DNA from: Antedon mediterranea
Lineage: Eukaryota; Animalia; Echinodermata
Reading direction: 5' to 3'
DNA length: 64,000 nt
Assembly: GCF_964355755.1 (NCBI RefSeq)
Contig: NC_092678.1
Location: forward strand, 14,844,371 to 14,908,370
How positions within the stretch are numbered: the stretch's first letter is position 1; each line of letters begins with the position of its first letter. The notes beneath the pieces are model-generated. The model searched no databases and was not told where the DNA came from. It saw only the letters and a program-made list of their open reading frames with translations. Positions 3,322 through 51,128 of this stretch are shown one piece after another. Both the position numbers and the translations under genes were made by a program.

Positions 3322-5991
3322 AGGTATCCCAATAAAAAAATTCAGATTAATTTTTTTACATTTTCTTTCAGTTAACCATAAAGAACTTAATGTAATTAGC
3401 ATTTTGCGATTTAAATGATTGAAATCCGATTACCCGTTCTAAAGTTATGGTTATTTAAAGTGGTAAAAAAATATACGATTTTTTGCCTAAAAATGGTGTT
3501 TTTTGCAGTTGAAATTGGAAGCATTTTTAAAAGGTTATAACTTTTACAATAATTAGTTAAAAGTTTTGAATTTTGTTAAACCTATAGATATCACAGAGTT
3601 GTACAACTCTATTTTTTTTGGAGCCTCAACGAAACCTATTTTTTAAATTATTGGTCCGCAAAGTGGTAGGAAAGCATTTAACGCCCATTTTTGCTGGAAT
3701 TCCCTAAAAAATGAAAAAACTGCAATTTTTCAATGATCTGTAACTTTTGAACTACTGTACTAATTCATTTAATTTTTTTTGTACTTGTTAGAATGTAGTG
3801 TATATTTCATTAATAAATATATTTTAGATGTGTATATGAAAAAAAAAAATTTTTTTAATGGTGAAATTTAAAATTATAAAAAGAAAAAATGAAAAAGTAT
3901 GTTAAAAACGGTGTGTACTGTTTCCTTTCTTTTACACTAATTTTCGGTAAGTATAATTATTAGAATATTTTAATATACTTTATATTTATAATTTCAATCA
4001 TAAATACTATTATATATAACTTTTGAATACGTAAAACAAGATTTTAGGCCCATATGATTATGACACCAAATCTAAGCTAAGTAAGATATGCTCTTTTTAA
4101 CGCACAATATGGGTCAAAATAAACTCATTTAAAATAATCAATGTTAATTAAAACAATTAATTGTTTACCTGAATAGTATATATAACATTATAAAAATTGT
4201 TTTCTTTTCGTATTACGTTATTAAATTGAAATACGGAGCTAAAGTTTAGGCCAAGTCACGGCTTACTCGCGATCAGTAGTCGCTCCGTTAAAGTATTTCG
4301 GTCGCAGTTAATGACTTTCGGCCGCCGTATACAGAGTCAAATTTAACGTTGGTAAATTAGCTTAATAAATTTCCTCGGTACATTTTAACCTAACGCATTT
4401 GCATTGTATACTTGCATAATAAATCTTCCGCACATTACATCAATTTTAAGTTGTTAAATTAATGTGTAAAACCAGATATTCTACGACGGAAAAGGACCAC
4501 GGCTGTTTCATAGCGACATAAAGTAGTGAGCCCTCAGGCGGCGAAATTGAAATATTTTTTAAATTGGGGGCGCTATACGCACGTGGGCGCACGTTGTTTT
4601 TTTCCGCGAAAATATATTACATCATCTTTCATGAACGAATCAGACGCCTTATTTGCTTAAATCGTTGAGATTTTTCATGAATATTCATTAGAGTGACCTG
4701 GATTTTGTAGGAATCGATTTTGTGGGACGTGCAGTTTGAAGCATGTGATGGTGGTGAGTAGTTGAAATTGGTTGAGTATTTTTATGTTTTTTTGTTGTTT
4801 TTTTTAATGGTTATGGCAAAAATGGCACTGCGTGTCTATTGAATTTTTTTAAGATGCAAAGTGTACATTTTTTGATACATGAATAGTAAAAGGAACCAAC
4901 AGTATTAAAATTGTTTTAACGGCAAAGCTAGTTCTAGTTCACCAACGCCTCAAGAACCACTATCCTATAGCTATAAAAAAACCACGTGTGGCCGCCTAGG
5001 CTATAATGATGGATTCTGTATTTTAAGAAAAGTTGATAAGACATTACAATAACAATACAAGTATAAACCATTAAAATCAACTGCACTGTGGCCTGCCTAG
5101 CCTCTATCTAGCTATAGGCCTTTTTAGGCCTAGGCCTACAGTAGGTCTAGCATTTTTAGGCATACTAGGCCTATTATTAACTAAGCCTAGGCCTAGCCTT
5201 TTTAGGCCTAGGTCTAGCAATGTTAGGCCTAGTTAGCCTAGTACTTACTACTTAGTCTTTTTTAGGCTAATTTTTTTTTGTGGCGTTAACCACTATTTAT
5301 TCATTTCATCTTCAACAGATTAATACAATTATTTCTAATAATAACTATTTCATTTTTATTCTTACTTTTGTTTGGTTTATATATATATTATTACAGAACA
5401 TTGATATTTCTTTTTCTGTTAGCCACCTTTTTTCATAACTTTCTAATATTTTTTTTTGTTCTATAATTCTCAACCTCTAAAAACACATAACTAATAAATG
5501 TAGAGTATACATTTACTAATGTTATATAATTATTTTCGGTTTTTTGATTATACCCTATATACAGACTATACATAATTTTAAAATAAATATGAATATAAAA
5601 AATAACAAAAATATTAAAAATGCTTTTCTTACTCCTGTGTCTAGTTTATGTCTCATGGTTATATTTGTTTGCATATCTTCTCGTGCGTTACTTATGTTGC
5701 GTTGCGTTTCTTTTTTGTTTCAATATTAATTTATACAATTTTGTAAATTCATACAAGATAAAATGAAATCGCCTATGGGTATTATACAACAATATTATGT
5801 AAATGTCTATTTTTAGGCTAATTACTATCAACAGTTAAACCTGCATCCTTGCCAAGTACTCCTCAGTTTACTCTTCAACATCTATGTATTTAAAAAAAAT
5901 ATAGTGAAATAAAATTAATTTAGTGTTTCTTACACTTACAGGTATAATTGAACTGTCACAAATCTGTTATTTAATCAAAACAATTATTAAA

Positions 5992-8900
5992 TCAAGTTAA
6001 AATTATTTTCATACCTTTTTTTTTCCTTTTAGGTTGAACAACTTTCGCTTGGACGTCTGGCTGACAGAATGTTATATGTGATTTCATCACTGATAAGGCT
6101 TGGGCAAGGCCACTTCTCATGCCACCAACTACTCTCTTTCTCCTGTTGAATGATGCATGGATGAGCTCACCGCCCTGTTCACTATGCAAGCCAAGACCGA
6201 CTTTCAAACGCCGCAACTGGTCAACAACATGATGTTCCAACATGTGAAGTTTTGGAGTTATAGAAAATCCATTTTCACGATAAGTTTTTAAAAATTCTTG
6301 GATGTTTAATTCTTGAAAAACAAAAAGCAATGTATTGTTTTTTTTTATCTCTTTATTGGTTCATAACAAGAACAGGAGAATTTGAGTGGAGTAAGAATGT
6401 AAGAAAAAGAACGCTGAAAATAGTAATATGGTCACCTGTTCCGTTTAAATAAAAACACACCATCTAAGATCGCACTCGAAGAGGCTCAGAGAAAGAGAAT
6501 AGATGGCAATTGATGACATACTGAGTGGCGAACACAAGTGAGTCGTGCAATGTTTAACAACGTTTAGCATTTAAGATGATGATGATGATTGGTTCATCAA
6601 TGTTGGTCATCTATTTTAATGGTTACGGCAAAAATGGCACTGTGTGTCTATTGAATTTTTTTTCTATTGATCATCTATTTTTTTAAACTTACCAACATTG
6701 TTGATTTCATCATCGGTCATGGATTGTGTGTGATTAATATTTCCATGAATGTTGGCGAATTGTGTAAATAATGAACAAAATTTGAACTTGGCTGTTTTTG
6801 CCTTTTCTTCTAGACGCTTTACATGGGCGATGGGAATGTCAAACTCGGTTTCTGCTAGTTGTCTGACCGGCTCTTCAACCAACTGATGGATAACTTTTTC
6901 CTGTAAGTAAATCAATAACACTTAAGCTTCACAATATATTATAATTTTTGTTATTATTATTATTATCACACTTATGTTTTATCATTTCTCTTTTCTTTAT
7001 GGCATTTAATAAGACAGCAACACAATTTCCCAAGTTGGGATGAATAAAGTTTCCTTGTATCCTTGTATAATAATAAAATAACATGAAAAAAAGGAAAACT
7101 TCCAATGTAATAACTGTACCTTGCAGCATTTATGGACATGGTTTCCAATAAAACTCTTCCCATTGTATGCCTGTCTGGCTACACCATGCTGGCCTAAAAC
7201 ATTATCAAGTCCAGCAACAAGTGGCCCACATCCATATTTCAATCCAGTGTTCAAATTTTTTTCCTATAATTAAAAACACAACATATACAAAATAAATATA
7301 CAGTACATATAGAATATGTTGTACACTGGCCTGTAAATGTTAACCTATATAAAGTAATTTAAAAAAAAAGAACCTACAAGAGCTTTGATTTCTTCCTTAA
7401 GTTTAGCAAGTTCTTTTAATTTCCTTTCGATGTCTTCAGTCATGGTAGCATTTTGCCTAATGAATGCCAAAGGCAGATTTTCTTCAAGGTCAATGATTTG
7501 TTTCTTCTTTGCCTCAATCTTTACCTTGGTGTCCACTTTTAAGTTTGCAGCTGCCTCAATGTCTTGCTCAAATTTTGTGGTTCCATCACTAAGGTTTCCT
7601 TGTGACAGCTCAAAAATTTCATGGTCTATTGCATTGATTTCCGCCTCATACATATCGAATAATTTCTTGTAGACACCAAGGGAAATATGCAAACTTGGTA
7701 CAGAAACCTGTGCATACAAAATAATAGTTTATAAAATATTTTAAATTATTATATGTTACTCGGATATAATGGATAATTCATTTTTAAAACTTACATGGTC
7801 AATTTCAATTCTTAAAAGAGACTTTCGGTTAACACTGTGTGAAATCTCCTTGGCTAACTCCTCCACCTCCCCATGCTCTACAAAGTTGGAATAGTCCTTA
7901 TCGAGACTAAGCAAGGTTCTGCTTTCACATTTTCCATCTGTTTGCATTTCCTGTTTTGTACTGTGACAGAAAAGGCAGCAATAGCGAGCTAAAAAGTTAA
8001 AATATATAACTAGTTAGATCAAATTTGTTTGTATCTAATTTTTTGTTTCTTTTTTTTTCAGCGAAAATAATTCTAAAGGAGGAAGAAGAACGAATTATTC
8101 AAAAGAAAGAAGTTTCCGTATGTACATACCATTTGCTCCTTTCACACCATAAATTTTCGTTAGGAATTCATAGTCCCCAAAAGCGAATAAACGAATTGGA
8201 AACCCCCTAAAATCAAACAATAATTTCATTTATTCAACAAATTTAATCAAATATGTAAACAAACTTATTATTATACAGTACAGTACAGTATACAGTAGTA
8301 TACATACCTCCATGTATCTCCACTTAGTTGCATGATTTTGTTTGCAACACTCGGCAAAGTTAAATTTATGTTGTGCATCGTATCCGGTCCTTCAAACAAG
8401 AGAACAACAATGATGTTCTTTACTGCATTTGGACTGCAGACATTGCAGATTTGAATTTCAAATTTGGTGGAGCCGCCACCTTTATCCCCTCCAAATTTCA
8501 ACCATATTTCACCCACATCTAGGTTTAGATTGTTTAGGCTAAAATGAAAAGACACATTTATAAATTACAGAGATTATTGACAGTTATAGTTTTCAACTAA
8601 TGCAGCCAAAAAAAATGTATATATACCTGTAATGTTGGTCCAGTTGCGAAAAAATTAATTTTCTAATATCGGATACCTGAACAACAGGACTGTCTTTGAT
8701 TAAAAATCCATCTACGGAATTGGGGGAAGTACTTGAAAAAAAAAGTGGCTCGAGTCTTCCCTCCAAGTTGCCGTCGATCAGTTGTTGTTGGCGTAAGCGC
8801 ATCTTTCTTTCGGATACGAGCACATTGTTGCCAATGTATCTAGCACAAATGACAAATTAAAAAACATTTTTAAAAATTGCAAAACCGTTTATTTGCAGTA

Positions 8901-10121
8901 TATATTTACTAATACTTCTTTATAATTATTACCTTCTTAGTTTCCGAAGCTGGTCCCAAGCCAGATGGCAATCTCCGAGAATGGCAAGGCACTCATCAAC
9001 ATCAGGTCGACTGTTACATGAAGCTGTGTCCAGTAAAGATGCATCAGTACATTGCAGTTCATGTAACTGTTGCGCCTTACTTCCACCTTTGCTCACTCTG
9101 TTTCTATTTGTTGCTATTTCTCTGGTGCGTCGTTGGAGAGTTCGTTGGCCAACTTCATCGCTATTCTTGGTTGGGTTAGTTGCGACTGAAACTCTTAATG
9201 GCTGTAGTGACGATAATTATATGAAGTTAAGTTCAAATGTTTAGCTATAATACAGAAATAAATTATTACTAATTATTATAATAACACAATTCTTACCCTT
9301 CCTGGAGTAGATATCAAAGTTTCGCCATCGTTTTCTTTAAGAGTTCTCCACAGAACCTTGTCGGCTAACCGCTGTACATTTTCAGGTATTGGTCCACATT
9401 GTATTTCATTATTAATTATGTCAATGGCATTAGTTAAGGACTGGTGTGCTGTAACTTGCTTACCTCTGCAGACATGGTTTAGAGCATCGTTTTTAAAAAC
9501 TTGTTCACAGTTGATGCAAATAAATTCCAAAGATTGTAAGGCATTTTTAGCAATTAAGGTAGGCTTTTTAAGTTCGTTTAGCCTGAAAGGTGACATGCAA
9601 ACAATACACAAACATGAATCTACCTGAAGAGTACAAAACAGGTTGGACAGACATTTAACACAGAAGTGATGTCCACAAGGTGTTACCAGATTGTCTAATG
9701 AAATAATTGATTGACAAAGGTAGCATTTGTAAATATTTCCAAATGTGTCATCTTTTAATTCAAATTCATTTTCATTTGTAATTTCATTGGTAATGAATAG
9801 ATCATTAAAAATAATTTTTTTCTGTTTTCTACCAGGTCGCTGTTGTTGTGTATATATGTAGCATGTGTAGCATGCTTCATCAGTATGTTGTTGCCAATTA
9901 TGAAATATTTTTATTGGTTGCAATTTGTACGATAGAGTTTGACAAGTATTGCACATAAATTGGGGATGAGTATCTTCTTTCTCTAAATTTGGATTAATTT
10001 GAATGAACTTTAGTATTTCTGATTTTAAATTTGACACTGGATAGCGAATTAATGTTTTTGATTTTAATTTTCTTCCACAGATTCTACATAACTGCGAAAG
10101 TGCAGTAGTGTGGTACTCCAT
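5992..10121 (-). CDS. Chapaev-type transposase with RAG1-like N-terminal Zn domain and RING finger; exons 10121-9297, 9201-8933, 8839-8627, 8538-8308, 8206-8130, 7988-7795, 7707-7378, 7263-7120, 6900-6693, 6311-5992; ~936 aa
   Basis: All GT-AG junctions are phase-compatible with no stop seen. H-x7-CRICG...HP...CNTC...WQQH...CYTC; C3HC4 RING; core motifs FGGDKGGG, FGDYEF, CCLFC, LHISLG, TPKLHMLEHH, SEQGGELIH. Confidence 0.88.
6365..6587 (+). mobile_element. 5'-truncated RTE-like LINE fragment in the last Chapaev intron
   Basis: 10-bp TSD ATTGGTTCAT (6355-6364, 6588-6597); (GAT)n tail; degenerate peptide WSKNVRKR...YGHLFRL..TPSKIALEEA. Confidence 0.7.
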
Positions 10122-11758
10122 AATGTATTAGATTAAGTATTATAATAGCCTAGAGTAGGCCCAGCCAGGCCTAGAATAGGCCTACTTTAGGTATATAAAT
10201 TCAAAAATAATGTTGCTTATATCACAGATAATAAATATAAATTTATGTTTGAAAATAAGGCTAGTGTACTGATGTTTAAATCACAAGAATAATTTTAGTA
10301 AAATGGACAAATGTACTGTAATTAATACACAAAACTATCTATGTAGGCCATAGAGTGGTAATAAAGTTCACAAATTACAATGACACAGGCCGTCACAGTG
10401 ATTAAAACAGCCTTTATATATGCCTAAATTAAAAATATTTTCGGGTTTGCCGTTAATCTGAATTTTGGCAACGTAATACCTGAATAGTTGAAGCTAACGT
10501 TTTGTTGAACAAATCGTCGAAAAAAAATTCGGTGCACTGACTAGCAGACAACAAATATTACAAACTTTGCGCTCTAAAATGAGGGCGCTATTTATTATTG
10601 TTATCGGCGATTTTTTCAAGTATAATGTGTTTAATAAAATAACGATTAATTATGTCTACAGACATAAATGTCGTTATATGCTTATCATTTAATGTTCTTG
10701 ACAACTTAATAAAACAAGTAATAGGAGCAATATTTGATATTTTGTGATTTATTTTTCAATTCAATATACAAATATAACACTGTATTATGCGTTCAGATCG
10801 TGAAGAGAACTGTGTTACGTTGCTAAGGATCGCGACGCGTGGGGGCGTGAGGCGAGAGGCGCGCTAGAAAAAAAAAGGAAAAGCGCGTTGTAAACACTTA
10901 ATGTCGCGCTGTACGTGCATTGAAACAGCCGTGGGACATGTCAATCTCCGACATCGCTGCTGTCACACATCTCGCGTCGAGCCGGTCGAACTCGAGCGAG
11001 GAAAACTAAACAACGTGTTCAAAATATGGAACGTACCATTCGCTGATAGGGTGCATTAATGTATTTAACGGAAAACGCCACAACAAACACGCGCGTATTT
11101 TAGAGTACAATATTTTACTCACTACAATATTCACCGGATTATAATGGTTGGATCTTTAAAATTTTGAACGGGATTTACGCCTCATGCACCATTTTAAAAT
11201 GTAGTTCGCTCAATTACCATACACAATACGTTTGTAAACTATGTTTTATCGATTTCAATGTAGATTTAGCTATAATTTAATACCAAAATCCATAATATTT
11301 TTCCATAAACGGTGAATCAAAATTGGATTTTTGTCACAAAAATTGACTTTTCGTTACGAAAAACCTCTTTATAGAAGACGATTTTCGTATCAAATTAAAG
11401 CTTATTTTAAGCCTGATAACATACAACAAAAATTAATCCGCTAGCTCCAATGGTAATCGTGCGATCGTGTTTTGAAAACTGATGGGGATTTTCCGATGAG
11501 TTTTTCAACGCGCGGAAATCGGCTCGACGGGATTTTAGAACCGTTTTAAAATCGCATTTTCTCGGCAACTAATTCATTAATTTTAATTATAAACACACTT
11601 ATACAAAGATTAAAACAAGTACTTTCAAACAATATAAATTTTGTAAGTATTAATTAAGATTGAATACGATTTATTTAACATCAAAGTCATACTACTTTTT
11701 CGAATTTCGTCAATATTTCAAAAGTGATACCCCTCTGTGCGCTTTCATTGGGATACCT

Positions 11759-14336
11759 ACTGTAAGTGTCCTTATCATATTTTTCAATGTACCGTGAAAT
11801 CTTTCAACAAGCCCATTGCTTTGGGGGTGGTACACTGTAGTCTTTAATTGATTAATCCCCAACATACTACATATAGATTGCATAATTGAAGACATGAAAT
11901 TAGTTCCTTGATCATGTACAATCTCTTCGGGTAATCCTACTCTAGTAAAGACTTCTATTAGAGCCCTGGCTACTGTTTCAGCTCTAACATTGGGTAACGG
12001 GATAGCATCCGGATATCTCGTAGCATAGTCAATTATAGTAAGCATATATTTGTTATTACGGCTTGTTCTAGATAAGGGTCCAACAATGTCTATCGCTATA
12101 CGTTTAAATGGTGTACTTATAATCGGTAATGGTATCAAAGTATGTTTCCTTTTACTTTTACCCTTATCTACCTTTTGGCATTCCTTACAGACTTTACAAT
12201 AGACTACCACATCTTTAAATATACCTGGCCAATAGAATTGGTTCAGGACCCTACTTTTAGTTTTCTCAACACCCATGTGACCTGCAAATGGCACATTATG
12301 ACCTAAGTGTAATACACCCTGTCTACACTGAGTGGGTAATACAATCTGTTCCACTTGGTTATTCTTATCTTTAATACTACTCCAATTTCTCATCAATATA
12401 CCTTGTCTCATAAAGAAACATACCCTATGCTGACCTATTTCTTCTATAGGGACTACCCTGTCAAACACTCCTTTGAGTGAGTCATCCTTAGTTTGCAATT
12501 TGATCAGTTCTTGTTTAGTTAGGTTCAGCTTGTGCTGTTGTTCATAAGTTTTATGTTTGACTGTTTTATCTTTAGCTTTATCCTCATTTTCGTCAAACAA
12601 ATTATTCATTTCTGTTCCATTCATATCATCTAAACACTTAGTTTTATTTACTTTGTTGTAATTTACTACTGTTTTCAACAATTGTACATTAGTTTCTTTA
12701 GGCGGCTCTTCTATCGGCTTAAAGTTACTATCTTTCCCTAACAATATCATTTCGTCTTGTATTCTAACATCATTTTCTATTCTGGCTTGCTCCCTAGTTA
12801 GGACGAACATTTCTTTAGCCATTATTTCCCCACAATTCTGGTCCAAATCATGACCCAACAACATGTCCCTCTGTAATCCTTCGATTACGGCTACAATCAC
12901 TTTTCCTGTCACTATCTTACTTTCTATAGCTACCTCAGCTAAGGGGACGGTAATATCGCCTCCTATACCTCTTAACGTAACCCATTTTCCTGGCAAGTAA
13001 CATTTGTTAGGCACTAGACTTTCCTTAACAGCTGACTGGGTACATCCCGAGTCTCTAAGCATAGTTATATCCTGTCCTTCTAATTTTCCTGGTATTGTAC
13101 ATTTCTCCATTTTATTTTCTACACTATCTATAACTACTTGGGGTCTATCTGATTTTAGTTCTTCACATCTTAAGCCATCTTTCACATTCGGGCCCTTCTT
13201 AGTGTCACTAGTCTTTCCTTTTGCTACCATCTTAGGACAATCCCCTATTTTATGTCCCTTCTCCTTACAATTGAAGCATAGGCCATTAATCCATTCATTT
13301 GAAGGTTCTCTCTGTTGGAAATTTCTACCATAGTTATGGAATTTGCCTCCCCTTCCGCGATACCTATTGTATCCTTGCTGCCTAGCTCCAGGGTTATTCT
13401 GAGTCGTACTATTCTTAGGTTTACTATTTTCTTGGCCCTTATAATACGTAGGCTTATTTTCAGAATTTACGGCATTCCAATAGCCACGGCCACCTCTATT
13501 AGCTATATAATCATCGGCTATCATAGCCATATCATAGCTCTTATTTACTTGTTTATCTCTAAGATAAAGCCTCAGATCTTCAGGCATTTTATCAAGTGCC
13601 TGTTCCATTATAATCATTTCAATAATGCCTGCAGCATCATCTTCTTTTACATTAGCACATTTCATCCAACATTTTAAATAATGGGAGAGCTCATTCAGCC
13701 ATTCCCTGATGGACATATCTTTAACTCTGTTTGAATTTCTAAATTTAAATCTGTAGGTCTCTGCGGACACATCATACTTTTCTAAGATTGCCTTCTTTAA
13801 GGTATCATAATCTACACATTCTTTTACGGTTAAGGATGCATATGCTGTCCTAGCTTTACCAGACAGTTCAGGTGCTAACCTAGCGGACCACGTATTCTTA
13901 TCCCAACCTGTGGCTTCTGCCAAGTGTTCAAATGTTCTAAAATATATATCAATATCATCTGATTCCTTCAAAGTAGGAACCTTTACCTTCATTTCATCTA
14001 CTATATTCCTAGCATTACTGTAGCTAGACCTATTTTCTAATTTCATCATTTTCACTCTTTCTTAACTTGTGATTCAATTTTTCTTTGCTCTATATCTGCT
14101 TCTAATCTTAATTGGTATTCTAACTTTTTGTTTTCGGCCTCGAACTTCATTCGAAAATATTCGAGCATCATATCTTTAGGCATACCGCCGGGTATTTCGG
14201 GCAAATCAATATCCCTAGCCATTTTATCATATATTTCATTGACTTGGTCAACCTCTTCTTGGTCAACCATATCTTCCCTAGTATCTTTGTCTGACATAGT
14301 CTTATCTATATTTTTACCCGATCTTAAAGTTGTCAT
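11759..14336 (-). pseudogene. Gypsy gag (SCAN-like capsid region, CCHC knuckle)-protease-integrase polyprotein; frameshift near 14055, interrupted at 11759
   Basis: CFNCKEKGHKIGDC; LRDSGC protease motif; H-H-C-C zinc finger (GHNVPFAGHMG...CKVCKEC); IAIDIVGP, IVHDQGTNF, YHPQSNGLVERF integrase core. Confidence 0.9.
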
Positions 14337-19800: not shown

Positions 19801-22309
19801 GATGATGATGAGGAAACACTAATTGATTAAGGATGTGGGTTTTAGGCCAGTGAAAAAAGAGTACTTAGAGATAGGAAGAAACCACTAGGAATGTTAATAG
19901 ATGGAGTAGGGAGAAATAGTGATTGAAGGGTTGTTGACCTGATGGTCAGAGTGTTACACCAGGACAACTCCCTGGTTACACTAGGCCTAATAGTAATAAT
20001 AGGCCTATGTATAATGGTTCACCAACGAGGACCTATAATAGTTACCTAGATAGTCTGGGCCTCTGGGCCCACAGATTTAAAAGGAAATATTTTAATTTAA
20101 ATATTTTATTATTATTTTCATAAACTAAATCGAACGATTATGATAGTATAATCAGGCTAGGCCTAGATTTGAACGACAACGTTACGTACGTAGGCAACCG
20201 TCCACGCAGGGGATTTTAATTTATAAAAATATTTCTTACCCTTTCAACCTCGCGTCTTCGACACGCCGCAGTCCGAGGCCGCACTTTCCGTTTTTTGGGT
20301 TGGGGTGGTAGGCCTTCTTCCTCACTTACCGGAGCTTTTATGGTGGGGTAAGCATCCGTTTTTAGTCTCGGCTTTACCACCACCCCCGTCTTCTTCATTT
20401 CAGAAATATGGAAAAAATTGTCGATGTCCGCGTTTAAAAAATGGGCGCTACATATTCTGTTAGTCCGCTTCCACACATACCCCTTTCTAGTTAACTTAAC
20501 AAATTCAGTCCATTTATTAAACGTTTCACTGCGTTTTAACTTGTCGGGGAATAAAAAAAAAGAAACATTTGGGTGTGTTGATCCAGTCCGGTTACATCCA
20601 CCGATACAACAAGCACTCGGCATCTTGCGAAAATAATGATGGTGAGATTGTGTCGCACATGTTGTTTTCGTCGTCATGCATGAAACGTCAAGCTCGCTGT
20701 GTCTCTGTCAAAGTGCATAAAATCAACCAATCACGATTCACTGGGTTGAAAAAGAGTAACCAATCACATAACAACGGCTGCCGTGGCTACTACCGCGGGT
20801 ATTTCAAATCAGCTAAGCGATCGAACGTGTGTTTAGAGCGATCGTGAAAACCAATATGGCGTGCAAGTCGGCGACGAAATTTGAGAGCCCCCCAATAAAA
20901 CGACTGACCAGAGGTCATGGTTAATTGTCACAGTCTATTCGTCCTTGTATAGAGGTCAAGTTCAAGTGTCAATTGACACAAGTCTTTTTTCCCATCATGT
21001 TCAGAGTTCAAGTAATTAACCTTATAATTATTAACCCTAGTTTAAAAATAAAATATCCTCTTTTGTAGATTTGTAACCCTTATTGAGTTTGAGCACATTT
21101 GTTAGGTACTGGTACTTAATTAATTTGGGTGGCTCATTAATTGACCTTTTAATGTTGCACGGAACTCTCCCTGTAACCCTAATAAGTAATAAACATTTAG
21201 TTATAGTCTCTCTTTATCTATATTTGTGACGTCAGTATACAGAGAAATATATTACCTTAACCACTAAAGATATGTTATTAATGTAAGAAAGTTATTTTTT
21301 GTTATTGAATACGTATACAGGTCGAATAATAAATGAATTTTAACACAATAAGTGACTATAAACTTATAAAATGGTAACATTTAATTTTTTTCCGGTCTTG
21401 ATCATTTTTCCCCGGTCTGGACCATTTACTCCAAGTCTTGAACAATTCCCCTTGACCATAACTCAAGTTTTAAACAACTTTTATTATTAGAAAACCCTGT
21501 TCCTAAATAGTTTCCAGGCTACTTGTATTTAAACATTGTATCAGAGAGTTGAAAAATAAGTTCCCTTAACATGTTATGCGATGTGGTCATCATAAGTGTG
21601 TAGACCACATTGCTACATTACTAACAAGGATGTCCCAAGCCGTGGAAACAGAAAAGAAGAACAGACGACCGTGTCCACTTTTCAATGTTCAGATGATTTT
21701 CGGTCGATTTTGATGCATGGAAGAGATTATTTTGTGGGTTAGGTTCAGCTTATTTATAGGTATTGATTTTGTAAGAGTTAGTAGGCAGTTTGTTTGTTTT
21801 GGTTTTTTTTTTTCATTATTGACCCTTTCTGATAACCGTAGAAACACGTCCAAAAACACATCGTTCGAATTCTCTTTGGAGAAAGTATCATACAAATGGG
21901 TTTGTTTATTCTTATTTTTGGTAATTAAGTGGTTTTTTTTTATATTATCTTTTATTTATTATTATTATTATTATTTTTATAGGAACTTGTTCTATGTAGT
22001 ACAAAGCGAGGAATTAACAAAGCATGGGACTTCATCGACTGACTAGTAGGCATTTGATGACCTTGCTGGAACGAATTGTTTGGTGACGTAAGATAAATAA
22101 AACATTTAAACAAGGAAGAGGAGAGATTACAATATTTATATTGGATACGATAAAATAAAATTACAGTCACCACTACGTATGTCTTTTGTTGTTGTTGTTA
22201 TCGTCATCGTCTATGTCAATATTAAGAAACAGACAAGTATATATAAACAAGCACAGTGCTTAAATTTATTTCAAATTTCGCATAAAACAAAAAAACTATT
22301 ACTTTACAA

Positions 22310-26869: not shown

Positions 26870-29800
26870 CACCATACCGGTACTTCCCGTGTAAACGGAA
26901 ACCCTTATCGAAGTGTATAATTCATGGGGATTCAACTGTAATACATAATAAATCTTTTGGATTTCATTGACGTTAAAATAATAGTGATAAAACACACGTT
27001 TTACATAGTATTTAGCCATTTTAAAAGTTGGATGTAGATCGTAGATTACCATACCATTATGTTTTACAATGCATTTTTCAGATACGTTTTAAACACAGCT
27101 GTTCCAGAAATATGAATTAAGTGCAGCGCCCCCAACGTTTCATAGTGTTTTATGGAGTAGCGATTCCGAAAACATATTGTATACAAACCATATGAGGAAC
27201 CCGGAAGCAATCAAGCATAAAACGACTGTTTTTTAATAGCCAATAAAAACAAATAAAGACCGCGAAAGTCAGAAAAATAATGAATATTCATTAGAACAAC
27301 CCTGGATGAAGGTGAAAAACATGTTGTTGTCGTTTTATCACGTGGATTTTAAGAGGTAATGTAATTGAAAATTGTACACCCAACGCCATTTTTTTTCTCA
27401 AGCGATACATTTAAAAAGTAGGTATAAATGTTGTTTTCCATATCAGTTTAAAAATAATTTTTTCTGTTGAATTCTTTGATATAGTTGGATACTTTAGTTA
27501 TCCTTGAATGTTTTAACAAGGATCGTATTCATATTGCCTGACTGGATTTTTTCCTATGCTAGCTTATATAGGCTATGCCCAGGCCCCCTTGCGTGGTTAA
27601 AACTAGCTGTGTAAGACTAATGGCTGTTTATTTTTAACACGTAAACATGTATATTCGGGGGGCCTGAGTGACAGTTGACCTGTTATAAAGCTGATTAATT
27701 ACTTGTTTCTGGTCCTAATTAAAAATTAGGCCTAGTCTAGGCCTAAGCTTTTTTAATAATCATTCATATTGGGAGAGGAGTACAGAATAGGCCAGGCTAC
27801 AGGCCTAGCCTAGCTAGGCCTATATTATATAATAGGCTAGGCTACATCATCAGCAGGTTAAAGGCTAGCAGCCTACCTAGCATGTCTTATTCAAAGATCT
27901 GTAATATATTAATAGAAAGAAGCTATAGAGTACTGTGACATTAGATATTTAATCATAAATGCATTATTTATTTCATATTTGTATTGTATATTTATTATTT
28001 TGATATGCAATCACAATCTAAATCAGTAAATAACATCAATTTCCGTTATCAATAAATAATTATTAATATATAAACCAAATTAAAATAAAATAACTGTTTA
28101 TTTTTAACACGTAAACATGTCTATTCGGGGGCCTGATTGACAGTTGACCTGTTATAAAGCTGATTAATTACTTGTTCCTGGTCCTAATTAAAAATTAGGC
28201 CTAGCCTAGGCCTAAGCTTTTTTAATAATCATTCATATTGGGAGAGAGGAGTACAGAGTAGGCCAGGTTACAGGCCTAGCTAGGCCTATATTATATATAG
28301 GCTAGGCTACATCATCAGCAGCTTAAAGACTAGCAGCCTACCTAGCATGTCTTAGTCAAAGATCTTTAATATATTAATAGAAAGAAGCTATAGAGTACTG
28401 TGACATTAGATATTTAATTATAAATGCATATTTCTTTCATATTTGTATTGTATTATATATGCAATCACAATCTAAATCACTAAATAACATCAATTTCCGT
28501 TATCAATCAAAAATATATATAAACCAAATTAAAATAAAATAGCTTCCAAAAAATTAAATTCAATTACAATTCATATACCATTTGTTAAATATTTACAAAA
28601 TCATTGTTCTAGCAATAACACAAAAAATACTACCATTCATACAGTATACTGTACATAATAATATGCAATACAGTAACAATTAACTGAGAAATAGCAAACT
28701 ATTCCTCAACTTTTCACCACTTAGTTACCGGCTTAGTTACTTCATGCTGGATCTCAGGTGAAATAAACGTCAGATGTGACTTCATGATATCCCACAAAAC
28801 TTTTTCCATGGTACTGCTGTCGAGGAATTTATTTTTTCTAAATACCTCGTCCGTTTTTGTACATAGAGGTCCTGTTTCAAATCTCTTGGTTCATAGTAGT
28901 TCGTTATATAAAATATATAAAAGAAATATGGCATTAATTTTTATAGTATTTGCATGTTTTAGACATAATTTTAAAGGTGTATAATGTAGGACTTTGATCT
29001 CTTGTTCTTTTAGATTTATTCTGTGGCCAGTCTCTGCAATCTTACTATGCTGTTTTGTCACAAGTGACACTGAGAGTTCATTTCTTAAATGCTCAAGATT
29101 CTCTTCTAAAGACTGGATTTTAATCATTGTACTTTGTAGCATGTCGATGTGCTGCAGCTTCTGATTTTCTCTTTCTGCTAGATGATCACCTGAGATTAAA
29201 CAATATGGTCAACCAAATGAATGTCAATCTGCATAAAAAATGAGCATCAACATTATTATATTTTTAAAATGTTAACAACTATTTCTTGTAGCAGATAATG
29301 ATAATATATGGATAATTCATAGGAAAATAAGTTCCAGCCAAAGGTTTGCTTTATTATGCATAAAAATAGGATAAACAATTTTGAAATTCTATGCTCAAAG
29401 GGACAATGTATATTTAAAGAGCAACTTGACCAATTGAGTTATTATGTAATGTCAATGTAAAGTTGAAACAATTTACCAGTCAAGATGTCAGCATCCTGTC
29501 GCATGTTGAATATTATAACATATTGACACCTGGAAAAATAGTTGATTGAGGAAATATTTAATAAAGAAAAGAGGTATATTTATAAATTACTGTAACAATT
29601 GTTTGTTTCGACAGTTATTTTATACTAACATTGTTCTTTAATATGAAGTACAAACACACATTTCATTGTTTGGAATGTGTATTAAACTTTCTAAAGAGGT
29701 GGTTATGATTATTTACCTACCCTGTTTAATTCAATGTCTACCAGGTATGGCCTAACAACGCTGTGCGATATTGTTTTGCTTCTTTTTTTTCACTGCCATG

Positions 29801-32207
29801 GTCTACAAAAGACTTGTAGGCCTTGAGATATCTACAGGCTTGAGGAACATTGTTGGTTCTGATGTCATCTTGATTACAAAAACAATGGATGCAACTGTAC
29901 TTTCCTTTAAAAATAAATCAATTTTTAAATCTACAGTACTTCAGTTTTGTGTCCAAACAAATCCAAACAAGAGAGCTAATAGCCAAAATATTAAACCATT
30001 ATTATGCTGTAAAAATGTATTAATATTAAGGCCTAGCCTAGGCTGTGACTGTCACTTAGTCACACCAGCTAGCCTAAAAATGCACCAGGAAAGCAATAAT
30101 TATTATTATAAACACATGCCATTAATTATTTGGTACCAGTTATAATGATTACATTTAGGTTTAGGGTAATTAAAGGTTTAACTATTACGAATTTTCTATG
30201 TTTCGGCCTAGCTTCATTCTAGGCCCACATTACTGTCACGGTCATCGCGCGCGTCAACGCACTTTCTAAGCCTATCGCCAAACCGTTTTCTCGCCGATAA
30301 CAATAACAATGTATAAAAGGGTTGCAAAATATGCGAGTTTTACTAAAAACTGAACCAGGCTATATTAAAAAAACTAGTATTATTTTGTTTATATAATAGT
30401 GATGGACTATATTCTAGTTCGTTCTTTTTCTAAAAAAATGAATTATATCCAAAAAAAAAGTAAAGAATACAATGATATTTTCTACTTACGATTGTTTACT
30501 ATTTCATTACACAGTTTATCTCAACTTCCTGGTTTATGTGCGGGAGAGTATTTCAGTAAAATGGACAATATCGTCGTTTATTTATTAATTTATAGTAAAG
30601 AAACAATAAAATATTTATTTTTTAATTGAACATACACTTTTTTTAATCGTTTAGTTTTGTATAAAATGTTTTTACAACATAAAAACTCACGATAGCGAAA
30701 TTTAATTTGCCGTTCGCGAAATAATGGTTTGTAAACAAAAATTATATGTCCGCGCGACTCGGAGGAGCCTCGTCTGCTAACACTGAGGGCGCTTGACTTT
30801 TTCTGATATCTTAACACTAGTTGAAACAGCTGTGTAAACAACTTAACTGATTTTGGAAGGGTATCAACATTGAGACTATTCCATATAATTGCTCCACGAT
30901 AAGACAGACTTCGTTTTTTAAAATCTGTTTTTGGCTTTGGGATGAATAGATGTGTATCACTGTTCCTTAGATTATAATTTATATCATTGAATGTAAATAC
31001 ATTATTTAGGTAAGGTGGGGCGTTATCTGTCAAAACCTTATATATAACCATACAACATTCATATCTTTCTTGATAAAATAAAGGTGACCAATTAATTTGC
31101 CTTAGTGCCTCACTACTAGGTGTGTCCCATGTTAGACCACACACGATTCGAGCTGTTCTGTTTTGGATAGTTTGAACTCTTTTCATTAGAGTTTGACTAC
31201 TATTTCTCCAAATTATGTTACAATAGCTCAAGTAAGGTATTACAATAGAGTTTGCAATATGTTTTAATATGTTTTGTGGAAAATAATAGCTACATCGTCT
31301 AAGCATACCCAATCCATTTAGAGCTTTACCTCAAATGTATTCAATCTGATTTTTCCATGATAAATGTTCGTCTATTATGATACCGAGATGTTTGCAATAT
31401 AGAACGCGTGGTACAACATCGTTATCTATATTAACTGATCTATTTTTTTCTTTGGTGGTTGCCAATCGGTTTGTCGATCCGATCAACATGAACTCGGATT
31501 TAGAGACATTTAGACTCAATTTATTATTTTTTAGCCAATCGTCGATTTGTATAAGTTCTTCATTTATACTTTGGTATATTTCATTTTCATTTTTTGAAGA
31601 ACAATAAATTATAGTATCGTCAGCATACATACTTATTTTACATTTGTTTGCAACTTTCGATAGGTCATTTATATATAAGAGGAAAGCAAGTGGGCCCACG
31701 ATTGACCCCTGAGGCACTCCACATTGGATGTGTGTATAGTCAGACAATGTATTATTTACATTTGTGAATTGCTTTCGCTCAGACAGATAGCTCTCGAACC
31801 ATTTTAAAACATATTTACTTAAACCATAAAGTCTCAATTTGCTTAATAGTATGTTATGGTTTACCGTATCAAAGGCCTTTTTAAAATCTAGTAAACAGAT
31901 TCCGACCAGCTTACCCTCGTCTATTGCACTATACCAGTCTTCCGTCACTTTTGTAAGTGCAGTAGATGTTGAGTATGATGGTCGAAAACCTGATTGATTT
32001 ATACATAACAGATTATTATTATTCAAAAAAGCATAAAGTTAATTAAAAACGACTCGTTCAATTATTTTTGAAAGTATAGGTAGGACGGAAATGGGACGAT
32101 AATTATTAGGGTTAGTTTTTTCACCATTCTTAAAAATTGGCGTGACCTTTGCTATTTTCCACGTATTTGGGAATTTACATGTTGTGAAGGAGTGATTTAT
32201 GATTCTT
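26870..32207 (-). mobile_element. 5'-truncated CR1/L2-group LINE, split by a Chapaev derivative
   Basis: RT motifs QSGFR, LLDFKKAFD, GVPQGS, YADD; ORF resumes across the insertion as SVKL-FKTYLKNAL* (27093-27064); in-frame stops; 3' boundary approximate. Confidence 0.85.
27094..30834 (-). mobile_element. Internally deleted Chapaev-type element, copy 1
   Basis: Termini CACAGCTGTTCCA / TGAAACAGCTGTG; TSD TAAA; residual transposase exons (KYSCIHC...SHSV; SLEENL; GPL...RQQYHGKSFVG); internal ~470-bp tandem duplication (~27622-28540). Confidence 0.88.
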
Positions 32208-46110: not shown

Positions 46111-49100
46111 CACAGCTGTTCCAGAAATATGAATTAAGTGCAGCGCCCCCAACGTTTCATAGCGTTTTATGGAGTAGCGATTCCGAAAACATATTGTATA
46201 CAAACCACACGAGGAACCCGGAAGCAATCAAGCATAAAACGACTGTTTTTTAATAGCAAATAAAAACAAATAAAGACCGCAAAAGTCAGAAAAATAATGA
46301 ATATTCATTAGAACAACCCTGGATGAAGGTGAAAAACATGTTGTCGTCGTTTTATCACGTGGATTTTAAGAGGTAATGTAATTGAAAATTGTACACCCAA
46401 CGCCAGTTTTTTTCTCAAGTGATACCTTTAAAAAGTAGGTATAAATGTTGTTTTCCATATCAGTTTAAAAATATTTTTTTCTGTTGAATTCTTTGATTTA
46501 GTTGAATACTTTAGTTATCCTTGAATGTTTTAACAAGGATCGTATTCATATAGCCTGGCTGGATTTTTTCCTATGCTAGCTTATAATAGGCTATGCCCAG
46601 GCCCCCTTGCGTGGTTAAAACCAGCTGTGTAAGACTAATGGCTGTTTATTTTTAACACGTAAACATGTATATTCGGAGGGCCTGAGTGACAGTTGACCTG
46701 TTATAAAGCTGATTAATTACTTGTTCCTGGTCCTAATTAAAAATTAGGCCTAGTCTAGGCCTAAGCTTTTTTAATAATCATTCATATTGGGAGAGGAGTA
46801 CAGAGTAGGCCAGGCTACAGGCCTAGCTAGGCCTATATTATATATAGGCTAGGCTACATCATCAGCAGGTTAAAGGCTAGCAGCCTACCTAGCATGTCTT
46901 AGTCAAAGATCTGTAATATATTAATAGAAAGAAGCTATAGAGTACTGTGACATTAGATATTTAATCATAAATGCATATTTCTTTCATATTTGCATTGTAT
47001 TATATATGCAATCACAATCTAAATCAGTAAATAACATCAATTTCCGTTATCCCCATGTTGTGACACATGCAATGTTATTGAGAATGATAAACATATGTTA
47101 GTAGAGTGCATAACAGTAAAATGTTTATGGAGAGAGATAAACGAAATAATTAGAGCAGTAAGCATACATATTCCTGTTTTTTCTTTCAAAAGACTTTTAT
47201 TTGAAACTGACAATAATTACGTAAATAAATTATACACTTTAGGAGCATTTTGTATTTATAAAGTAAAGATATTAAGTTTATTGGAAAAAGAAAAAAAAAA
47301 GCAATCTCCTACAAATGTTTAAATCTGAAAAAAAGATAAGAAATATGTAAATCTGCAGGTATACTGTATATGCTCAACCAGATTAAGGAAGAAAATATGT
47401 AAATGAGATACCATGAATGATGAATCTATTATGTTTTTTTTTTTTTTTTTGTTTTTTTTTTTTTTCTACTATACTGTATATTTTGTAAATACAAAATGTG
47501 AAAAGCTTTTTATAGATTGATGATAAAAAAAATGATGAAGGATAAGAAGGTTTAGGTTTAAGTGGTGAAGTGTTTTCATCAAAGCTTTCATATTATATGT
47601 ATATACCGTATATATGTAATTTGCACATTCTTACTGCATGTGGAATTTTGAAATGATAAAATGGTTAAAAAGAAAAAAAAAAATTTCAATTTTTTTTAAT
47701 GGATCATTAAACACAAATGTTGTTAAATGATAATGTATGTATAAAAAAATAATAGAATAAATAATAAGTAAAAAAAAATAATTGAATGAACCCACATAGG
47801 AAAAAAAAAGTTAAATGAAACTTTGATGGGTTATACTGTAGATGCAAAAAAGGATAATCTGTTGGAAATAAATTTTGTAAACATTTAAAGATAAAAAAAA
47901 ATCAATGTTAAAGGATGAGGAAAATATAATGTTAACAGTAAAAAGTTAGTAAGTAATTAGTATAACTGAGAATATGCATTGTTTAAATGAAAATATGTTT
48001 GCATAGATAAATCCAAAGAAAAAAAAATGGGACAAACCCATGGGATGGATTTATTAAACATAAACGTATTATAATTGTATGAAATAAATATGCATGTAGA
48101 TGAAAAAAAAACCAGAAACAACTATGTAAGAAAAAATAAGCTTTGTTAATGAAAATGTGTTATAGATAATATGTATAAAAAGAGGAAACTATGTAATCAA
48201 TGTGGTTAAATGATAATGTATGTATAAACAAAATAATATATGGAAATATTTTTTTTTTTTTAAAGAAAATAAGTAAAAAAAAAAAGTGGAATGAATCCAC
48301 ATAAGAGAAGAAAGTAAAAAAGTTAAATGAAAATTTAAGAAGTTATAGATGCAAAAAAAGATCTGCTGGTTTTGTAAACATTAAAGAACAAAAATATTAA
48401 TATTAATGTTAAAGGATGAGAACAATATTATGTTAACAGTAAACATTTAGTAAGTAATGAGTATAACAGAGAATATGCATTGTTAAATGAAAATGTGGTA
48501 GATGAAAAAAATCAAAAACAACTATGTAAGAAAAAAAATAAGCCTGTTAATGAAAATGTGTTACAGATAATATGTTTAAAAAGAGGAAGCTATGTAATCA
48601 ATGTGATAATATGTAAACAAATGAATAAAACTCTTTAAATAAGTATATGTATACAGATGATTAAACAAACATTGTAAATATAATGATATGTATAGTGTAT
48701 AGTGAAAAATATATGTAAAGAGAACAGTGGTATGGAAATAAAAGTGGGATGAACCCACATAAGATAAAAAAAAAAAAAATTTCCGTTATCAATCAATAAT
48801 ATATATAAACCAAATTAAAATAAAATAACTTCCAAAAAATTAAATTCAATTACAATTCATATACCATTTGTTAAATATTTACAAAATCATTGTTCTAGCA
48901 ATAACACAAACAAATACTACCATTCATACAGTATACTGTACATAATAATATGCAATACTGTAACAATTAACTGAGAAATAGCAAACTATTCCTCAACTTT
49001 TCTGCACTTAGTTACCGGCCTAGTTACTTCATGCTGGATCTCAGGTGAAATAAACGTCAGATGTGACTTCATGATTTCCCACAAAACTTTTTCCATGGTA

Positions 49101-51128
49101 CTGCTGTCGAGGAATTTATTTATACCTCGTCCATTTTTTTACATAGAGGTCCAGTTTCAAATCTCTTGGTTCATAGTAGTTCGCTAAATAAAATATATAA
49201 AAGAAATATGGCATTCATTTTTATAGTATTGCATGTTTTAGACATAATTTTAAAGGTGTATAATGTAGGACTGACTAAATCTTTGACCTCTTGTTCTTTT
49301 AGATTTATTCTGTGGCCAGTCTCTGCAATCTTACTATGCTGTTTTGTCACAAGTGACACTGAGAGTTCATTTCTTAAATGCTCAAGATTCTCTTCTAAAG
49401 ACTGGATTTTAATCATTGTACTTTGTAGCATGTCGATGTGCTACAGCTTCTGATTTTCTCTTTCTTCTAGATGATCACCTGAGATTAAACAATATTGGTC
49501 AACCAAATAAATGTCAATCTGCATCAAAAATGAGCATCAAAATTATTAAATTTTAAAAATGTTAACTATTTCTTGTAGCAGATAATGATAATATATGGAT
49601 AATTCATAGGAAAATAAGTTCCAGCCAAAGGTTTGCTTTATTATGCATAAAATAGGATAAACAATTTTGAAATTCCATGCTCAAAGGGACAATGTATATT
49701 TAAAGGGCAACTTGACCAATTAAGTTATTATGTAATGTAGATGTAAAGATGAAACAACATTTGAATTTACCAGTCAAGATGTCAGCATCCTGTCGCATGT
49801 TGAATATTATAACATATTGACACCTGGAAAAATAGTTGATTGAGGAAATATTTAATAAGGAAAAGAGGTATATTTATAAATTACTGTAACAATTGTTTGT
49901 TTCGACAGTTATTTTATACTAACATTGTTCTTTAATATGAAGTACAAACACACATTTCATTGTTTGGAATGTGTATTAAACTTTCTAAAGAGGTGGTTAT
50001 GATTATTTACCTACCCTGTTTAATTCAATGTCTACCAGGTATGGTCTAACAACGCTGTGCGATATTGTTTTGCTTCTTTTTTTTCACTGCCATTGTCTAC
50101 AAAAGACTTGTAGGCCTTGAGATATCTACAGGCTTGAGGAATATTGTTGGTTCTGATGTCATCTTGATTACAAAAACAATAGATGCAACTGTACTTTCCT
50201 TTAAAAATAAATCAATTTTTAAATCTACAGTACTTCAGTTTTGTGTCCAAACAAATCCAAACAAGAGAGCTAATAGCCAAAATATTAAACCATTATTATG
50301 CTGTAAAAATGTATTATTATTAAGGCCTAGCCTAGGCTGCAACTGTCACTCAGTCACACCAGCTAGCCTAAAAATGCACCAGGAAAGCAATAATTATTAT
50401 TATAAACACATGCCATTAATTATTTGGTAACAGTTATAATGATTACATTTAAGATTAGGGTAATTAAAGGTTTAACTATTACGAATTTTCTATGTTTCGG
50501 CCTAGCTTCATTCTAGGCCCACATTACTGTCACGGTCATCGCGCGCGTCAACGCACTTTCTAAGCCTATCGCCAAACCATTTTCTCGCCGATAACAATAA
50601 CAATGTATAAAAGGGTTGCAAAATATGCGAGTTTTACTAAAAATTGAACCAGGCTATATTGACAAAACTAGTATTATTTTGTTTATATAATAATGTTGGA
50701 CTATATTCTAGTTCGTTCTTTTTCTAAAAAAAATGTATTATGTACAAAAAAAAGTAAAGAATACAATGATATTTTCTACTTACGATTGTTTACTATTTCA
50801 TTACACAGTTTATCTCAACTTCCCGGTTTATGTGCGGGAGAGTATTTCATTAAAATGGACAATATCGTCGTTTATTTATTAATTTATAGTAAAGAAACAA
50901 TAAAATATTTATTTTTTAATTGAACATACACTTTTTTTAATCGTTTAGTTTTGTATAAAATGTTTTTACTACATAAAAACTCACGATAGCGAAATCTAAT
51001 TTAGCGTTCGCGAAATAATGGTTTGTAAACAAAAATTATATGTCCGCGTGACTCGGGGGAGCCTCGTCTGCTAACACTGAGGGCGCTTGATTTTTTCTGA
51101 TATCTTAACACTAGTTGAAACAGCGGCG
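46111..51128 (-). mobile_element. Internally deleted Chapaev-type element, copy 2
   Basis: Colinear and highly similar to 27094-30834; left end CACAGCTGTTCCA; right end degenerate (TGAAACAGCGGCG); no clean TSD. Confidence 0.88.
47052..48777 (+). mobile_element. 5'-truncated L1/Tx1-like LINE 3' end inserted in Chapaev copy 2
   Basis: TSD AATTTCCGTTATC on both sides; poly(A) tail; starts with CDTC...HMLVEC...LW zf-RVT-like peptide; long A-rich 3' UTR with an internal duplication; absent from copy 1. Confidence 0.8.

Follow-up and report, generated by a model that had tools for sequence, protein, structure and literature searches.

A Single-Gene Chapaev Transposon in Antedon mediterranea with a RAG1-like Domain Order and Unequal Bipartite Ends

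Introduction

Does a transposon that shares the domain order of RAG1 and carries no RAG2 also possess unequal ends of the 12/23 type? The question is raised by a Chapaev DNA transposon of 6436 bp, located at positions 4498-10933 of a 64,000-nucleotide stretch of Antedon mediterranea DNA (Echinodermata; contig NC_092678.1, positions 14,844,371 to 14,908,370), hereafter the window. Each end of this element holds a terminal inverted repeat (TIR) followed by a second motif, which lies one helical turn farther from the terminus at one end than at the other. To our knowledge, Chapaev elements are the only other transposons with the N-terminus of RAG1, and Chapaev activity is not reported among the literature titles listed.

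Element Boundaries and Insertion Site

The terminal features of the element are the following:

4494..4497, unstranded: left target-site duplication (TSD), GGAC; single copy in the empty site
4498..4510, plus strand: 13-bp TIR downstream of the gene, short end; exact inverse of the other end
4498..4535, plus strand: terminal 38 bp common with a diverged, internally different sister family; the 38-letter side of the 4535-4659 joint in runs X1 and X9
4513..4524, plus strand: second end motif, short register, bases 16-27 from the terminus; 11/12 identical to the long-end motif
10863..10933, minus strand: terminal 61-71 bp, ungapped in related elements with other interiors and flanks
10896..10907, minus strand: second end motif, long register, bases 27-38 from the terminus
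10921..10933, minus strand: 13-bp TIR upstream of the gene, long end; exact inverse of the other end
10934..10937, unstranded: right TSD, GGAC; single copy in the empty site

The TIRs are perfect: the sequence at 4498-4510 is CACGGCTGTTTCA, and 10921-10933 carries its exact reverse complement. The TSD is a 4-bp GGAC at 4494-4497 and 10934-10937. The empty site is present in contigs of all four public sequencing runs compared, where 4493 is joined to 10934 with a single GGAC and four letters fit either side of the joint. Because these contigs hold one GGAC, the element ends and the 4-bp TSD are exact and not due to chance, as the first-pass annotation of this DNA had read them (13-bp CAC...GTG TIRs with a GGAC TSD). 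A 5-bp TSD is rejected, since the empty site gives 4 bp. The empty sites stem from the insertion flank, which belongs to a high-copy repeat; GGAC occurs once in the other copies of this repeat. Beyond 10933, three X1 contigs and one X9 contig (zero in runs X5 and X6) leave the right end for other flanks. Because these flanks differ, related ends have been inserted at several sites. With a contig depth of ~280-420, the element body is close to the single-insertion junction contigs (293-378), which points to very few full-length copies.

The high-copy repeat around the element (4000-4497 and 10934-11500) reaches a depth of 60,000-85,000 in run X1, versus ~280 for the element body, and is also present in the other two organisms compared. 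A sister family with a depth ~5-6 times that of the element retains both terminal blocks (4498-4535 joined to 4659-4768; 10863-10933) around a different interior and probably represents non-autonomous elements using the same ends. Within the element, 5255-5757, 6259-6760, and 7012-7262 (parts of the 3′ region and of introns 9 and 8) have matches in repeats of higher abundance, and 4802-4850 recurs at 6614-6662 with 96% identity.

Unequal Bipartite Ends

Internal to the TIRs, a 12-bp motif starts at base 16 from the 4498 end and at base 27 from the 10933 end. The two copies are 11/12 identical and offset by 11 bp, with a score that 37 of 2000 shuffles attain when any offset is allowed and 3 of 2000 attain at offsets 9-12. 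This long/short bipartite arrangement was absent from the first-pass annotation. A second Chapaev family in the window, family B, has an offset of 10 (reached in 6/2000 shuffles at any offset and 0/2000 at 9-12). It has CACAGCTGTT ends, and both of its copies contain minus-strand transposase remnants:

27094..30834, minus strand: family B Chapaev, copy with internal deletion; TSD TAAA, 10-bp end offset
46111..51128, minus strand: second family B copy, 96% identical, internally deleted, one TIR mutated, without a TSD match

The ends of relatives were taken from 80 loci, the best of 191 confirmed; 75 candidate ends were reduced by a distance rule to 60 and by de-replication at 75% to 30 non-redundant ends. 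A position-free motif search that excluded the window sequence yields a 9-mer, GGCACTTAG, which starts at base 18-20 or 28-30 in 24/30 ends; the two registers were defined only once the data had been seen, and the 30 ends are related, so that a binomial estimate would overstate the result. The total score of the motif is 272, versus 174-188 in six shuffled sets, and the best site of the family matrix on the long end of the window element has start 28 (score 4.4). Across 14 long ends, the spacer columns are less conserved than the TIR and the motif core. The best offset is 10-11 in seven of ten end pairs, hand-chosen as one per family, versus 5-9% per pair in shuffles, and none of the pairs that resolve combines two long or two short ends. 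A 4-bp TSD flanks 14 of the 19 two-ended relative loci, some of which are duplicates of one insertion. Two loci have unusual termini: at L072:5288, tandem copies of the second motif come after the end, and at L078/L080:11501 a TIR segment of the end is duplicated.

The identity of the long end varies. Loci with a short 5′ and a long 3′ end belong to one 27-row clade (local support 98) of an unrooted FastTree tree comprising 76 rows of unnamed homologues, from which seven near-duplicate loci were omitted and in which rows assembled from X-joined pieces could cluster as a technical effect. Outside this clade, the opposite polarity is found in (i) the window element, (ii) L024 and L043, which have short 3′ ends, (iii) L001, with starts at 29 and 18-19, and (iv) L002, with a 5′ start at 29 and an unclear 3′ start; L001 and L002 are both without matching TSDs. 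Family B, absent from the tree, has the same polarity as the window element, with its long end upstream of the gene remnant. The one-long-one-short arrangement persists in most pairs while polarity differs between lineages, a distribution that one swap would explain.

Gene Model and Coding Frame

The transposase gene is predicted to consist of ten minus-strand exons separated by nine GT-AG introns of 87-381 bp, with 2811 nt encoding 936 amino acids and a stop codon:

9297..10121, minus strand: exon 1; Chapa/NZD type-I ligands, aa 4-87 (9861-10112); RING C3HC4, aa 133-175 (9597-9725), and zinc finger, aa 202-218 (9468-9518)
8933..9201, minus strand: exon 2; basic and helical, placed like the RAG1 nonamer-binding and dimerisation domains (by position only)
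8627..8839, minus strand: exon 3; profile match
8308..8538, minus strand: exon 4; catalytic D454 (8484-8486), Pfam DUF1280 match
8130..8206, minus strand: exon 5; catalytic D524 (8173-8175), in 95/96 homologues
7795..7988, minus strand: exon 6; zinc ligands C543/C546
7378..7707, minus strand: exon 7; LH motif, long helical insertion
7120..7263, minus strand: exon 8; N747 (7162-7164), His in run X1 and 81/88 homologues
6693..6900, minus strand: exon 9; profile match
5992..6311, minus strand: exon 10; H853/H858 zinc ligands, L866 (6205-6207; Trp in run X1), catalytic E879 (6166-6168), basic tail, stop

The spliced frame has no internal stop and all 18 splice sites are intact. Homology supports the predicted joints: an annotated A. 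mediterranea protein (P0154) is 42% identical in a single alignment of aa 203-928 that spans all nine junctions, and P0001 aligns with aa 378-928 at 46% identity and 9 gaps. When the six frames of the window are searched with a profile that was built from 73 homologues without the window sequence, all ten exon frames are matched in order, with E values of 2e-32 to 1.4e-7. In intron-rich relatives such as L057 and L074 (~30% identical), the profile breaks at the same nine places at profile resolution, and the start methionine and Chapa motif of the window protein line up with the starts of full-length homologues. The ten-exon model is thus a homology-supported prediction, in keeping with the stop-free, ten-exon frame of ~936 aa proposed at first pass. 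The closest named proteins are crinoid. No near-identical protein was found among 2012 matches, the closest being P0001 at 46%. A short helix in exon 2 was considered as a lesion and rejected, as P0006 is ungapped there and P0154 is likewise short. Run X9, in which splice joints are absent and depth varies as in low-coverage DNA, is uninformative on expression. A word-based homologue search confirmed 0 of 4589 candidates for exon 1 and 1 of 46 for exon 4, and 0 of 47 pattern matches in viral contigs were confirmed.

Outside the gene, the longest stop-free frames of the element are 70 and 64 aa, and 0/14 such frames pass the Pfam cut-off. The element has no room for an intact second gene and hence lacks a RAG2-like gene, as had been claimed.

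Protein Domains

The N-terminal region resembles that of RAG1. Searched against the PDB, the family profile aligns with mouse RAG1 98-380 (E value 3e-27) through the NZD, the RING, and the next zinc finger, in an alignment that includes exon 1, and it also matches the RAG1 NZD (21wb; E value 3e-13). The Chapa ligands H4, C12, C15, C57, C60, W76, H79, C84, and C87 are present in a pattern that, by sequence, is that of the type-I Chapa domain (defined in bioRxiv 10.64898/2026.01.24.700457). The top match of the exon-1 model (mean predicted local distance difference test (pLDDT) score of 82) is the RAG1 dimerisation domain 1rmd, with Z 10.9 and a root-mean-square deviation (rmsd) of 2.8 over 106 aligned residues, tied with LNX2 (within 1 Z); the NZD does not appear in the fold-search lists, which RING matches filled. 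All eight C3HC4 ligands of the RING are present, and its predicted fold matches 1rmd, LNX2, and TRAF6. The RING and zinc finger are thus predicted to adopt a RAG1-like fold. Active RINGs usually carry Pro and Arg at the last Cys pair; here this pair reads CIVCM, with neither residue.

The fold of the core was modelled on P0001, a homologue of the window protein. The P0001 core (pLDDT 95) matches RAG1 with Z 22.6 (rmsd 3.7, 418 aligned), ProtoRAG with Z 21.4, Transib with Z 20.5, and the P element with Z 11.4, which points to an RNase H-fold core with ZnB as in RAG1/Transib. Core identity to RAG1 in the structural alignments is 12-15%. Among homologues, the catalytic residues are conserved in 86/88 (D454), 95/96 (D524), and 79/82 (E879), the zinc ligands C543/C546 are found in 96/96, H853/H858 are near-invariant (97 homologues), and the LH motif corresponds to L609/H610. 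D524 and E879 fall on the second Asp and catalytic Glu motifs of RAG1 in a weak profile alignment, and P0001 alone retrieves no RAG chain from the PDB by sequence. These features agree with the initial description of a RAG1-N-like Cys/His domain, a C3HC4 RING, a further finger, and a D/D/E core with CxxC and HxxxxH ligands.

Exon 2 follows a GRP motif (aa 274-276) and precedes helices that weakly align with the RAG1 dimerisation helices. Because its profile matches no RAG chain, its role is inferred from position only. A dimer prediction for this region (score 0.02, fold uncertain) is counted neither way.

State of This Copy

The first-pass annotation regarded the element as young and potentially active. 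Its open frame and recent insertion stand, while its activity is made doubtful by N747, L866, and differences from seven long same-species contig pieces of run X1 (15/4651 letters). Among the differences listed (40 of 268), at least eight are coding, and 8/8 of these are residue-changing. N747 is His in X1 and in 81 of 88 homologues, none of which has Asn, and L866 is Trp in X1, P0001, and 39/84 homologues; both residues deviate from the family pattern. The copy has probably drifted since a recent insertion and, judging from its residues, may be impaired.

A stronger version, pertaining to the activity question alone, is that the copy is already dead and its frame open only through recent insertion. 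This is plausible, with the balance tilted slightly against it. It would account for the residue-changing differences, for an Asn747 without precedent in the 88 homologues, and for five exon-1 sites at which a second species carries the other letter. It has to contend with the intact catalytic residues, zinc ligands, and 18 splice sites, and with a match to the family at 75 of its 83 conserved columns, P0001 sharing four of the eight departures; moreover, the differences between the window and X1 could be alleles or assembly errors.

Comparison with Known Systems

Chapaev elements generate TSDs of 3-4 bp, and Chapaev3 combines a 3-bp TWA TSD with a short one- or two-exon transposase. The 4-bp GGAC TSD, 936 aa, and ten exons exclude Chapaev3. 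RING-bearing Chapaev transposons were reportedly described by Kapitonov and Jurka in 2007. The window element is a full-length, single-gene Chapaev cut-and-paste transposon, the type first proposed for it, with CAC...GTG TIRs (which define Chapaev as 5′-CAC...GTG-3′; PMC4079192), a 4-bp TSD, an N-terminal Chapa domain, and a DDE core with C(2)C, LH, and H(4)H motifs.

RING fingers are documented in two Chapaev subgroups (PMC4411706), RING-bearing Chapaevs also appear in PMC4079192 and bioRxiv 10.64898/2026.01.24.700457, and a strict C3HC4 pattern is found in at least 10 of 33 full-length homologues; the domain architecture is therefore not new. As far as their available descriptions go, the published elements share with the window element the CAC...GTG termini, 4-bp TSD, single gene, Chapa-then-RING order, C(2)C/LH/H(4)H motifs, and DDE residues. 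The window element differs in (i) an intact frame with nine introns, (ii) a best protein identity of 46% (P0001), and (iii) long/short bipartite ends, which are absent from the descriptions examined. The available portions of PMC4411706, PMC4079192, PMC7204232, PMC12730594, PMC3014272, and two 2026 preprints hold no statement of unequal bipartite Chapaev ends; Repbase Reports 2007/2008, Yuan and Wessler 2011, and supplements lie outside this coverage and may show ends. A family-wide long/short end design thus appears to be undescribed for Chapaev, Repbase Reports aside.

RAG1 shares with the window protein the order of NZD, RING, zinc finger, and core (core Z 22.6, P0001 model). Similar to the 12/23 recombination signal sequences (RSSs), the Chapaev ends differ by one turn, and their motif starts (17-20/28-30) lie within 1-3 bp of the nonamer starts at 20/31, the latter implied by 7+12 and 7+23 (PMC1131882). 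Unlike RAG1 and its RSSs, the element has no RAG2, a 4-bp rather than 5-bp TSD, a 13-bp TIR rather than a heptamer, a motif unlike the nonamer, a long helical core insertion, and no detected homology to the nonamer-binding domain (NBD). RAG-like (RAGL) transposons also have unequal bipartite TIRs, as in ProtoRAG (27/31; PMC8289069) and PflRAGL-A (10-bp asymmetry; 10.1101/2023.08.20.553239), and such ends are likewise found in AanRAGL and subgroup-I Transibs (PMC9435367). In AanRAGL, a 13-bp element is combined with a 4/13 spacer, a layout close to the 13 + 2/13 + 12 of the window element. In contrast to the latter, RAGL elements carry RAG2L and a 5-bp TSD, and the window protein, whose terminus is a basic tail, lacks the Cys/His C-terminal clamp. 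Transib (HzTransib, 6pqx) is similar in its single gene and related core (Z 20.5, P0001 model), and several of its families have RSS12/RSS23-like ends (PMC1131882). Transib differs by the absence of NZD and RING, a shorter core, and a TSD that is typically 5 bp, although its length is labile in some Transibs.

Proposed Mechanism and Alternatives

The arrangement of the ends makes it probable that the enzyme reads each end via two sites with a one-turn offset and that long and short ends are paired. By analogy with RAG and Transib, a transposase dimer would bind both ends, the D454/D524/E879 site would cut at the CAC termini, and insertion would proceed with a 4-bp stagger. The exon-2 region, at the position of the RAG1 NBD, would recognise the second motif and accommodate the one-turn difference, much as the 12/23 difference is taken up in RAG by a pivoting of the NBD dimer (10.1101/2023.08.20.553239). 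The choice of long end would be immaterial, because it differs between lineages. The RING would likely serve dimerisation, as in RAG1. A strict one-long-one-short pairing rule is proposed only tentatively. The wider claim, that Chapaev follows a pairing rule without RAG2 and that 12/23 geometry and the NZD-RING N-terminus are ancestral to Chapaev and RAG1/Transib, is conceivable but on balance doubtful.

Several observations weigh against two-site reading with long/short pairing: (i) the family matrix misses the short-end site of the window element (-2.3 at base 17) and the sites of family B, (ii) 6/30 ends lie outside both registers, (iii) L057 and L002 miss the offset, L039 ties 9 and 10, the offset match of L001 is no better than shuffles, and L055 (start 32) compared with the near-identical L066 (19) suggests an offset of 13, (iv) most relatives belong to one clade and are not independent, and some members of a family remained separate after de-replication at 75%, (v) GGCACTTAG, the family motif, does not resemble the RSS nonamer, (vi) RAG1 is matched only weakly by the whole-core sequence (E value 0.002), and (vii) the exon-2 profile retrieves no RAG chain from the PDB at E values up to 10. 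A nonamer-like reading of the window motif itself is rejected on the basis of the family consensus.

Alternatively, the second motif could be a real transposase site with each end bound alone, the offset being inherited and keeping the site on the same helix face. Any shift of 10-11 bp would stay in helical phase, TIR asymmetry has been proposed to matter rather little to invertebrate RAGL-B enzymes (PMC7204232), and most of the relatives belong to a single clade. This reading is unlikely, given the absence of long/long or short/short pairs among the resolved pairs and an arrangement that is kept though polarity differs between lineages. Still less probable is that the second motif serves a host factor, such as a DNA-bending protein or transcription factor. 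Its dissimilarity to the nonamer and the lack of detectable NBD homology (exon-2 profile versus PDB) would fit, but the motif keeps a constant spacing to the cut at both ends, the non-promoter end included, in elements whose transposases are ~26-34% identical to that of the window. Finally, a RAGL or Transib element that lost RAG2, as the RAG1-type fold and N-terminal domains might indicate, is scarcely credible in view of the 4-bp rather than 5-bp TSD, a core only 12-15% identical to RAG1 when RAG1L cores exceed 30% (PMC4411706), and a D-to-E spacing of 355 aa versus 253 and 206-214.

Two-site reading with paired long and short ends bears on the origin of the RAG system. The requirement for unequal substrates has been counted among the adaptations of RAG to domestication (10.1101/2023.08.20.553239). 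A one-turn offset that is conserved across Chapaev and kept through a polarity swap suggests a design older than RAG domestication. The element would permit a direct test of 12/23-like pairing outside the RAG lineage, with the proviso that this copy is possibly impaired. As a complete element with matched ends, it renders the pairing rule, hairpin chemistry, RING activity, and Chapa function testable, the last having been described as lacking experimental validation in Chapaev (bioRxiv 10.64898/2026.01.24.700457).

Other Elements in the Window and among Relatives

Among the relatives, L013, L019, and L073 represent intron-rich Chapaev families with multiple complete copies and differing 4-bp TSDs in long contigs; these families have an additional intron between the Chapa domain and the RING. 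The Chapaev frames of L001-L004 and L047 are intronless or nearly so, as opposed to the lineages with nine shared introns, and wholesale intron loss or gain is therefore indicated.

The window contains further mobile elements. A minus-strand open reading frame (ORF) of 783 aa at 11710-14061, with SCAN, protease, and integrase matches and without a reverse-transcriptase match, is a piece of a Gypsy-like retroelement. A THAP-domain ORF (20216-20707, minus strand) and a protein-primed type B DNA polymerase in three fragments (22944-25117, minus strand) probably belong to a decayed Polinton/Maverick-like element. LINE-like reverse-transcriptase/endonuclease ORFs are found at 30590-32038 (minus strand), 37326-39185 (plus strand), and 41409-44876 (plus strand).

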